A DNA stretch of 63,538 bases, filler included, from Stramenopiles sp. TOSAG23-6 (lineage: Eukaryota): NCBI GenBank assembly GCA_900128565.1. It is 25 parts of 25 records of this genome, joined end to end, with 100 filler letters (N's around TTAATTAATTAA, not from the genome) between each part and the next. Parts side by side here need not be neighbours in the genome. Positions count along the whole stretch, not along the records: positions 50,999 to 53,427 come from LT638051.1; 24 more parts are not named here. One strand, given 5' to 3'. Both the position numbers and the translations under genes were made by a program. Of the stretch, positions 50,999 through 53,368 are shown piece after piece (within the stretch, counting starts at the first letter, position 1; each line of letters starts with the position of its first letter). The notes beneath the pieces are model-generated. The model did not search any database. It was not told the DNA's origin and saw only the letters and a program-made list of their open reading frames with translations.

Positions 50999-53368
50999 AT
51001 GATGATGATAATGATAATAATAATGATGATGATGATAATAATNATGATNATGATAATAATGATGATGATGGAGTCTCCGATATGTTTGCAATGTTTGCTT
51101 CTGATGATGATGATAATAACAGTGATAATAATAATAATAATGATAATGATGATAAAGTCGTAACAGATGCTAAACCTGAAATTATCAATGTATCCCTTCC
51201 ATCAAGTTTTTCTGGTAAAAGTCCAAAAGATTTACTCTTAGAATATGCCCGTAAAAGTAATGGAAATAAAGCACTCGCTAAGCCAATATATAATCGATTA
51301 TTTAGTCGTGGATCATCTGGTAGTGGACGTGCATTACATCGCTGGATAGTTTTATTACCTCCTCACAAAAATAGACCAAGATGTTTTTTTTCATCATTAA
51401 TTTCAATTTTTTTTTTTTTGGTAAAACATTTTGTATCTAACGATTTTTTTTAACCAAAAAAAATTAATAATCTTCACAATACATCTGCTCCTCAAGACAC
51501 GATGCGTTTTGAAATGCCGGAAAATCAGTATTGTAAAACAATGAAGGAAGCACATAATTTAGTTTCTGCCATTGCATTGTTTAAATTAGTTCCAGGGCAA
51601 CAAATCCAAGTACATTTTTATCATCGATGTTTTTTTTACCTACACTTTTTCGTATAAAAATTCCGTATCTAACATTTTTTTTTTTTTCTAAAACATNTTT
51701 TTTTTCACTNTACANGTAAGACTTGCTCCAGTGTTTAAAACATTATGGCAGTCCTGGTTACAATCAGTCGCTGATAAACGAGAAAAAGATATGAGAGAAG
51801 CAGCTGCTCCTCGTGATCTTTTTCTTTCAAACGTTATGAATTCAATAATTTCTCTTGGAAAAAAAAAAGGTGATACTCAACAAATTCGAAATTCGTTTGG
51901 TATGAAAGTAGATATGGATTTAGTTTCTGGGAGTATTGTTCCACAGATGCAGAGGTCTACAATAAGTAGTACTAAAGAAAGTTCTCAAATTCGAAATTCG
52001 TTAGGTACGAAAATTGGTATAGATTCAATTTCTCTAAAGGAAAAATTTTCTCAAAGGACGAAAAGTAAAATATATCAAAACATGTTAAAACAACGACAGT
52101 TATTACCCATGACAAAACTTAAAAATAATATTATAGATACATTACAAAAACATGACGTCATTGTTGTGTGTGGTGAAACTGGGAGTGGAAAATCCACTCA
52201 AGTACCTCAATATATCCTTGAAAGTGAATGTACGTTTTATATGAATTTCTAATGTAATGTTTTTTTTCATACGAAATTTCGTACCTAACAAATTTTAGTT
52301 TTTTTTTTTGAAATATTTTTTCACAATACATTATTATCTGGTGTAGGCGAAACTTGTCGTATTGCGTGTACTCAACCACGTCGTATATCTGCATCTAGTA
52401 TTGCAACGCGTGTTGGTGTTGAAATGGGAGACCTTGGGCGTTGTGGTGATAAAAATTCTCTTTGTGGTTATCATATTAGAGGTACACGACGCATTGGTGA
52501 AGAGACTCGTTTAATTTATTGTACGTTTTCATTATGAATTTCAAATTTATTTTTTTTTCATACGAAATTTTGTACCTAACAAATTTCGAATTTAATTGTT
52601 TTTACAATATATGTACTACTGGAATTCTTTTACGTCAATTACATAGTAATCGTCTTCTGGATCAATATTCACATATCATTATTGATGAAGTTCATGAAAG
52701 ATCTTTACAATCCGATTTTCTTCTAGTTGTTTTAAGACAAATTCTTGAAGAACGAAATGGAGGGAATTATGGTCGGTCAAATCATGCACGAAATGAAGTA
52801 ATAAATGATAATGTAAATACATTTAGTATGCCAAGTGATGAATGTAACCCTAACCCTACGTTTTCGAGTGAAGAAGAAGAAATGAATGGTACAAGTGATA
52901 TGGAATGTAATGATTCCTGGGAATCAAAATTATCACAAAATATAACTACACAAAAAAATACACAAAAAAATACATTAAAAAGTACGGGAAAAAATACTCA
53001 AAATTTTAAACAAAAACATCAAAAACGACAAAATTTTAAACAAAAAGATTTGAAACCTCTGAAAGTTATTCTAATGAGTGCTACTATTGATGCAAACAAG
53101 TTTTCCAAATATTTTGGAGAATGTCCTGTTATAAATGCTCCGGGAAGGGTACGTTTTCATCATGAATTTCAATTTTATTTATTTTTTCATATGAAATTTT
53201 GTACCTAACAAAAACATTTTTTTTTTTATCGTGAAAATTCCATAGTTAACAATTTTTTTTTTTTTAAATATGTTTTCGGAATACATACATTTCCAGTTGA
53301 TGTCTTTCATCTTGAGGATATCATTGAAGTGACAAAATATACTTGTGAACAAGATGCTCCTAATTCAT
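50999..53368 (+). CDS. DEAH-box RNA helicase, DHX29-like (partial); introns 51383-51484, 51610-51715, 52230-52331, 52521-52612, 53149-53286
   Basis: GETGSGKSTQVPQ, CTQPRRISA, Y/CTTGILLR, DEVHER, MSAT, PGR/TFPV. Confidence 0.92.
52230..52331 (+). mobile_element. Representative Introner-like GT-AT intron (near-consensus copy)
   Basis: GTACGTTTTATATGAATTTCTAA...CATACGAAATTTCGTACCTAAC...GAAATATTTTTTCACAATACAT; nearly identical to 36837-36935 in an unrelated gene; AT on both flanks. Mobility is inferred. Confidence 0.7.

Follow-up and report, generated by a model that had tools for sequence, protein, structure and literature searches.

How does a piece of an intron, turned around, come to lie in frame within exons of unrelated genes? 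The question is raised by a DEAH helicase gene of Stramenopiles sp. TOSAG23-6 (assembly GCA_900128565.1), carried by contig LT638051.1 at positions 50,999 to 53,427 of the 63,538-nucleotide (nt) stretch of joined contigs analyzed here (the window). Genes in this stretch are eukaryotic and interrupted, very commonly by a stereotyped, introner-like family of introns of 87-117 nt (~100 nt) with the form GTAYGT…CGTACGAAATTTYGTACCTAAC…ACAATACAT. A preliminary description of the stretch had proposed that antisense fragments of the core of this intron sit in frame inside exons, and that the element, or repair templated from it, also lands in the unspliceable orientation and survives as new peptide in unrelated proteins, implying spread at the level of DNA. 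We found that the exonic antisense cores are real and far above a codon-shuffled background. The explanation that we favor, with a probability of roughly 50%, is that they are core-only patches from the introner-like family, captured at the DNA level and kept in frame by selection.

The segment at 51986-52020 reads CAAATTCGAAATTCGTTAGGTACGAAAATTGGTAT on the plus strand and matches the 22-mer AAATTCGAAATTCGTTAGGTAC without a mismatch. The intron core with which it was compared, at 20330-20361, reads AATTCGAAATTTGTTAGGTACAAAATTTCGTA on the same strand; it lies within an intron of a minus-strand gene (open reading frame (ORF) 20008-20361, minus strand), and the plus strand therefore shows a sense intron core in reverse complement. 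The direct comparison and a profile built from 12 full-length introns (model length 105 positions) agree that the helicase segment is a reverse-complemented core, as had been proposed, and it lies in an ORF of 186 codons (51692-52249, plus strand) that runs into the DEAH-helicase P-loop. Similar copies, each comprising 30-48 nt of the reverse complement of the central core and matching only model positions ~31-85 of 105, occur inside other long coding-strand ORFs (Table 1). The five further antisense sites given by the preliminary description are all present, in frame and free of stops, with the profile matching the strand opposite to the ORF; the one at 51881 reaches only 3.3 bits and draws on other support.

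When up to 3 mismatches were allowed, the 22-mer had 8 matches in the window, as compared with 0 in each of 100 dinucleotide-preserving shuffles. The profile scan against codon-shuffled controls that the preliminary description had suggested was run on 42 coding-oriented exon pieces (31,407 nt), from which the stereotyped introns had been trimmed off. It returned five antisense matches of at least 11 bits (11.5-18.3) and no sense match of that strength (best, 5.1 bits), and 200 codon-shuffled sets of the same pieces contained no match of at least 11 bits on either strand (maximum, 9.0 bits). The enrichment of antisense cores in exons is thus statistically solid.

A single reading frame, (QIRNS)LGTKFxTKK, is common to all exonic copies, the TTA of GTTAGG forming a codon; the peptides are QIRNSLGTKIG, QIRNSFGMKV, QIRNSLCTEFSTKK, SLRTKFGTKK, LLGTECSTKK, TLGKEFGTKRK and KIRNSFFT. 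Stops are absent from this frame (LGTKFRTKK) in 24 of 46 intronic antisense cores, as compared with 38 for the VRYKISYEK frame and 0 for the third. Freedom from stops alone predicts the observed frame in 39% of cases, or 0.39^5 for five independent loci (p ~0.009). Since introns are not tied to a single frame, this bias argues that the exonic copies are translated, and it suggests a filter for the hydrophilic reading rich in G, T and K. The context of the in-frame, stop-free copies is a coding one, with ORFs of 91-370 codons (186, 370, 198, 233 and 91) that continue on both sides of every copy, a Dna2 domain, helicase motifs and synonymous single-nucleotide polymorphisms (SNPs).

The helicase exon carries two copies. 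The upstream one is weak by profile and matches the 22-mer with 2 mismatches; compared with the downstream copy it is identical at 40/48 positions without gaps, a score of 32, whereas 1000 codon shuffles gave at most 20. Because the two share a 48-nt unit, lie 105 nt apart and are in phase, they probably represent a single event plus a local duplication. The core in the 370-codon ORF, which matches the 22-mer with 1 mismatch, has its closest intronic match in the antisense of the copy at 50824 (score 36, ~40/44 identical by our own count). The 198-codon host of a further copy was identified as Dna2 through PF08696 (E 1.2e-18), and Dna2 structures were also matched. For the 233-codon ORF, Pfam and homology searches yielded no family and no homologue, and a weak Atlas lead pointed to the endonuclease/exonuclease/phosphatase (EEP) family (score 0.91); Pfam gave no family for three of the host ORFs. 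The earlier claim that the host proteins are unrelated is borne out by this assortment: the variable linker of a DHX29/57-like helicase, a loop in the Dna2 nuclease domain, a weakly EEP-like ORF and two unassigned ORFs.

A degenerate seventh copy, at 19350, was absent from the preliminary description; it matches the 22-mer with 3 mismatches and, having lost the GTTAGG part, cannot be oriented with certainty. Within the core lies the perfect palindrome GTACGAAATTTCGTAC; only the CCTAAC/GTTAGG part of the core is asymmetric, which matters whenever orientation is judged. The exact 14-mer AAATTCGAAATTCG occurs four times in the window (14802, the 19350 site, 51882 and 51987), in 4/4 cases on the coding strand of an exon and in 4/4 read as IRNS, as against three intronic counterparts that read AAATTCGAAATTTG (…ATTTG). 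The pattern hints at an exonic subfamily, in numbers too small to decide.

Table 1. Exonic antisense core copies and the introns used for comparison (window coordinates).
Feature	Position	Strand	Setting	Profile match	Peptide or sequence
Helicase, downstream copy	51986..52033	+	DEAH (DHX29/57-like) helicase, N-terminal linker exon	51990-52019, opposite strand, 11.5 bits, model 44-73	QIRNSLGTKIGIDSIS
Helicase, upstream copy	51881..51928	+	same exon and phase, 105 nt upstream of the downstream copy	51877-51907, 3.3 bits	QQIRNSFGMKVDMDLVS
Copy in 370-codon ORF	14801..14845	+	family not recognized	14805-14845, 18.3 bits, E 8.5e-5, model 33-73	QIRNSLCTEFSTKKK
Dna2 copy	28390..28421	+	Dna2 nuclease-domain exon; mirrored at 30260-30291	14.6 bits	SLRTKFGTKK
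Copy in 233-codon ORF	49287..49336	+	233-codon ORF	15.4 bits, model 37-85	TLLGTECSTKKRR
Minus-strand copy	63377..63419	-	91-codon open-ended ORF	plus strand, 11.7 bits	NTLGKEFGTKRK
Degenerate seventh copy	19350..19392	+	exon 19185-19525; shared frame		KIRNSFFTILQK, KIRNSFFT
Reference sense intron	52230..52331	+	helicase gene	62.6 bits, model 1-105	GTACGT…CATACGAAATTTCGTACCTAAC…CACAATACAT
Second sense intron	52521..52612	+	helicase gene; rare variant		…CCTAACAAATTTCGAATTT
Intron core used for comparison	20311..20361	-	sense copy in minus-strand gene, truncated by contig end	20.1 bits	

The window consists of 25 contigs of 2,427-2,463 nt (~2.45 kb apiece), ordered by falling length and with a G+C content of about 20-38% each, in an AT-rich genome of approximately 30% G+C. 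They are separate pieces, with 24 linkers (N44-TTAATTAATTAA-N44; 2464-2563, 5026-5125, and so on) between them, and distances between contigs are therefore meaningless. The contig at 28116-30565 is a perfect palindrome, whose arms (28016-29340 and 29341-30665) are 100% complementary with no spacer. A chimera of amplification or assembly is the probable cause, and the Dna2 copies at 28390 and 30260 are therefore a single locus seen twice.

The introns that contain the core have the fuller consensus GTAYGTTTTAT…(CAATTTCGAATTTA)…TTTTTTCGTACGAAATTTYGTACCTAAC…TTTGAAATATTTTTCACAATACAT. The profile detected 19 full-length introns and, at E<0.01 and leaving aside the exonic sites, 69 copies, a count in which tandem units and the copies mirrored in the palindromic contig are included. 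Near-identical copies sit in unrelated genes, in the same orientation as the neighboring long ORFs, and exact excision from GTAYGT to ACAT gave the longest joined ORF in 15 of the 17 informative full-length copies (the remaining 2 of the 19 lie against contig ends). Most of the 19 full-length copies start with GT (17/19), end with AT (17/19) and have AT before the 5' GT (15/19), and in 12/19 the CTAAC motif is followed by no AG up to the 3' border; the family thus departs from the GT-AG rule (e.g., 52230-52331, 36391-36502 and 10366-10472), and its borders could be read as GT…AT or equally as AT…AC. The termini resemble inverted repeats (5' end ATGTAYGTTTT…, 3' end …AAAATACAT), with a 2-nt direct repeat at the borders; neither a transposase nor an empty site was seen. 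Judged by these sequence features, the family behaves as a non-GT-AG intron with inverted-repeat-like ends and a 2-nt border repeat. Both introns of the helicase gene listed in Table 1 support this behavior: excision of 52230-52331 joins ORFs of at least 68 codons on either side, and excision of 52521-52612 would, on our own reading, restore a conserved motif, …IYC joined to TTGILLRQL. The reverse complement of the latter intron has the AAATTCGAAATTTGTTAGG form, nearest to the downstream helicase copy.

Environmental sequences provided a second view of the helicase copies. Two contigs from two independent seawater DNA metagenome runs of another study span them without gaps, one of 199 nt across the upstream copy (51751-51949) and one of 181 nt across the downstream copy (51969-52149); these copies are therefore not artifacts of assembly or amplification. 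The seawater runs show six SNPs in the helicase gene, of which 5/6 are synonymous third-position changes. One of the synonymous changes, at 51910 (A>G), falls in the upstream copy and converts GTA to GTG.

Comparison with homologues was feasible for Dna2. An exhaustive profile search found 565 relatives at E up to 0.001 (a word search gave 3 matches), and the alignment comprised 22 of 150 relatives listed, namely those whose match covered most of the query. At the columns of LRTKFGTKKY, 15 of these 22 homologues have no residues, three have 1-2, one has 6, and three carry unrelated inserts of their own. The region is variable, and the same peptide was seen in no homologue. This gap pattern, although in a variable region, fits a lineage-specific insertion, so that at Dna2, the one locus compared, the peptide may be an insertion relative to orthologues, as the preliminary description expected. 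The helicase linker could not be aligned with distant homologues: a search with the helicase exon found only a public protein, P0001, and distant DHX29/57-like proteins, and a metagenome scan with this exon found no relative. No relatives of the other three ORFs were detectable.

These observations can be brought together if patches of 30-48 nt were copied from the central core of the dominant introner-like family into coding exons. In the inserted orientation the 5' GTAYGT and CCTAAC branch-point signals are missing, and the patches would for this reason remain in the mRNA and be translated. The core DNA may have been captured or copied as filler in break repair, or may have moved as a small palindromic unit; selection would then have removed all insertions except those that were multiples of three and free of stops in the hydrophilic frame L-G-T-K-F-x-T-K-K, in loops and linkers. 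Because an antisense copy cannot arise by reverse splicing into the host's own transcript, an origin at the DNA level suggests itself naturally; the spread at this level that had been claimed earlier is favored by the antisense orientation and by the helicase copies in two seawater contigs, the origin itself being argued from these. Likewise, we infer the retention of the copies as peptide from ORF logic, the shared frame and one synonymous SNP, so that survival as new peptide is supported as to coding context, with translation a deduction.

Several observations weigh against this reading. The sample is small, comprising 63 kb and 5-6 independent loci, and orthologues could be compared at one of five loci, where the region is variable. 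Part of the surplus of antisense matches over sense ones is built in, sense copies with splice signals having been trimmed out as introns; core-only sense pieces would nevertheless have been kept among the exons, and no such piece scored. A sense core piece in an exon is hinted at only at 19415-19444, in exon 19185-19525 (GATACAAAATTTGTTACCTAAAG, 4.8 bits, E 1.3, read as LIQNLLPKG). At the copies we found neither a target-site duplication nor a clear pattern of microhomology, the boundaries of the two helicase copies merely sharing AG and GTAC. In two metatranscriptome runs, no RNA contig fell on the exon bins beside the copies across 51716-53427, the RNA depth at 51948-52063 representing cross-matching of the repeat. 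Finally, P0001 omits 51870-51911 (42 nt) and 51969-52004 (36 nt), parts of the helicase exon, as GT..AG introns.

The extent of the inserted unit bears on whether a whole introner was instead inserted antisense into each exon and later trimmed by deletions to its core. Such a history would suit a family that resembles a small DNA transposon, with inverted-repeat-like ends and AT on both sides in 15/19 copies; such elements should insert in both orientations, and at 63377 a local alignment spanned positions 0-102 of a 112-nt antisense element. However, when 55 nt on either side of each core were compared with the matching arms of 16 antisense introns, the flanks of six copies resembled intron arms or ends no better than random exon windows did (12 tests, p 0.036-0.93), including those at 63377 (p 0.45 and 0.53), where the long alignment failed this test. 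No exon of the window contains a full-length antisense copy, and a whole element with its ends and a target-site duplication was not found in exons, only the core being recognizable. With cores up to ~91% identical, two neat deletions would be required at each locus, and a core ~91% kept beside arms wholly lost does not fit an even decay of the whole element. From these comparisons we prefer insertion of the core only over insertion of the whole element followed by erosion, which we regard as unlikely; of the two routes in the preliminary description, the element itself or repair templated from it, the second is the better half.

A donor intron within the host gene itself was considered and set aside. 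The downstream helicase copy does match best to an intron of its own gene, at 52521 (score 26), but copies on other contigs score 25; for the core in the 370-codon ORF, the best match lies on another contig. Same-contig donors are thus not favored.

P0001 prompts another explanation, in which the helicase copies are short in-frame spliceosomal introns that are missing from the mRNA. This protein, the best match to the helicase exon (label 'eukprot: GSMAST32.ASY1.ANO1.249.1 assembled CDS'), is identical to the exon but for the two omitted segments and is therefore a public gene model of the same contig (51454-53427); both segments start with GT, end with AG and are multiples of three. Yet P0001 misreads well-supported introns of the same gene as protein, one partly and another wholly (…ESEFFFFEIFFHNT…), and for this reason we rejected it as evidence of splicing; it looks like an automatic GT-AG prediction. 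The two segments, at 36-42 nt, lack GTAYGT, CTAAC and the AT end, whereas the introns supported by ORFs measure 87-117 nt. Introns need neither a single frame nor freedom from stops, yet all 6-7 copies have both, and the A>G change at 51910 in an environmental contig abolishes the AG that P0001 requires while being synonymous if the copy is translated. We consider splicing of these segments improbable. Passages of one report describe single-cell stramenopile gene models that combine ab initio predictions with alignments of proteins and of metatranscripts (PMC5778133); that P0001 came from a pipeline of this type is an unconfirmed guess from its label. Automatic annotation of this genome is in any case unreliable around the repeat, since exonic copies are cut out and true introns are read as protein.

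The core could also be a small palindromic mobile unit adapted to in-frame coding sites, the exonic copies forming a subfamily of their own. This would accord with the confinement of the 14-mer to exons, always read as IRNS, with the single frame of all copies, with the palindrome and with the presence of the core alone in tandem arrays. But the sample is very small, the two helicase copies probably stem from one event, the CG/TG variation occurs in introns as well (…AAATTCGTTAGG… at 43645 and …ATATTCGTTAGG at 12367), and no ends or target duplications delimit a unit, which leaves such a subfamily quite improbable. One tandem core-only array is located at 57759-58018 on the minus strand and comprises six profile-matching units that repeat every ~41 nt (CATACGAAATTTCRTACCTAAC with an A-rich spacer), in a contig of 20% G+C and downstream of GTATGT and telomere-like repeats.

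A chimera of whole-genome amplification, a misassembly or a low-complexity coincidence might be suspected in an assembly fragmented into 25 contigs of ~2.45 kb with one perfect palindrome of the kind seen in amplification chimeras, but it is exceedingly improbable given the absence of matches of at least 11 bits from 200 codon-shuffled sets and of 22-mer matches from 100 shuffles, the gap-free seawater contigs over both helicase copies from two DNA runs, and ORFs that continue past every copy.

The window contains telomere-like (CCCTAA)n stretches (AACCCTAACCC…), 11-17 nt long, at 16 distinct places, including 760, 964, 28613, 28964, 38085, 44037, 48803, 52846, 54206 and 57045. In 10/16 cases an ORF of 92 codons or more contains the C-rich strand, read as N-P-N-P. 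Among these host ORFs are the helicase and, with two stretches each, Dna2 and a 677-codon ORF. Of the six possible frames of (CCCTAA)n, four have no stops. Other telomere-like stretches lie in intron-like sequence beside the core motif, and CCCTAACCC includes the CCTAAC branch motif.

Together with the antisense cores, these patches suggest a general process of micro-insertion followed by selection on frame, and it is mainly because they show a parallel pattern (one strand, one hydrophilic frame) that, for the core-only patches, we lean toward capture associated with repair. A bolder proposal, which we hold to be distinctly unlikely, is that the palindromic introner core is an independent small mobile or repair-templated module that enters coding exons in one translatable frame, the equivalent in a eukaryote of the Rickettsia palindromic elements, and the telomere-like N-P-N-P patches likewise; if true, the proteins of this organism would be remodeled continually by repeat-derived micro-insertions.

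Introner families are the best current explanation of bursts of intron gain, and traces of insertions 'wrong way round' are seldom described; Huff et al. (2016) reportedly studied introners. According to passages of Gozashti et al. (bioRxiv 10.1101/2022.06.06.494994), introners are transposon-derived intron families found in Micromonas, Aureococcus and many other eukaryotes. As compared with the introners of those passages, the family described here is likewise stereotyped, highly repeated, co-oriented with unrelated host genes and bounded by inverted-repeat-like ends and a 2-nt repeat, and DNA-level insertion of introners in both orientations predicts antisense relics in exons such as those we observed. 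It differs from canonical introners in the AT end (17/19) and in the missing AG after the branch motif (12/19), and the cited passages make no mention of core-only antisense pieces kept as coding sequence. The non-canonical introner elements of Amoebophrya are, in passages of the report on them, repeated introns with inverted repeats, short direct border repeats and non-GT-AG ends (PMC7789003). The family resembles these in its inverted-repeat-like termini, border repeats and non-canonical ends, but belongs to another lineage and sequence family, and retains the 5' GTAYGT and a yeast-like CTAAC, only its 3' end being unusual; antisense exonic fragments are not mentioned in those passages. Our literature search, which left subscription papers and supplements outside its scope, found no description of this intron family or of antisense exonic relics.

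Outside the introners, the closest functional analogue of the exonic cores may be the Rickettsia palindromic elements, selfish bacterial palindromic repeats that sit in frame in protein-coding genes as defined, full-length units. In both systems unrelated proteins carry a short palindromic repeat in frame, as a tolerated peptide at the surface or in variable regions; here, in contrast, the host is a eukaryote, the loci number 5-6, the borders are undefined and the repeat is also an intron core. Exonization of antisense Alu elements creates new, alternatively spliced exons from intronic copies. It too turns an antisense repeat into coding sequence, whereas the pieces described here lie within pre-existing exons and bring no new splice sites. 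Repair of double-strand breaks can add filler DNA, templated insertions and short interstitial telomeric repeats. The small size of the patches (11-48 nt), their abundant or nearby source, the lack of transposon ends and the telomere-like patches in exons fit such filler, but no junction microhomology or donor locus was found and the best donors are not preferentially on the same contig.

Seen in this company, the exonic antisense cores are a case of repeat-derived coding sequence, and a real, if modest, addition to what is known of introners. Such relics would mean that genes receive the repeat, or its core at least, as DNA and in either orientation, the co-orientation of full copies with genes being due to selection and not to targeting. 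They would also show how conserved proteins, among them Dna2 and a DEAH helicase, can gain short peptides from repeat DNA.

The intron element itself is very abundant in contigs of 4/4 seawater runs, with a summed word depth of up to ~1.6e5 in DNA and 4e4 in RNA at 52238-52353, 52528-52643 and 53340-53427, as compared with a depth of 0-16 in the exons beside these intervals; seawater evidently contains very many copies of the family, within this lineage or its relatives. In a public metagenome collection, the core pattern had one exact match, too little for statistics, in a contig that carries a single full-length element (L001:1962-2065, minus strand, 48.6 bits). The exonic copies are also predicted to form duplexes of -16 to -29 kcal/mol with the sense intron cores of the same pre-mRNA, and such pairing might influence splicing.

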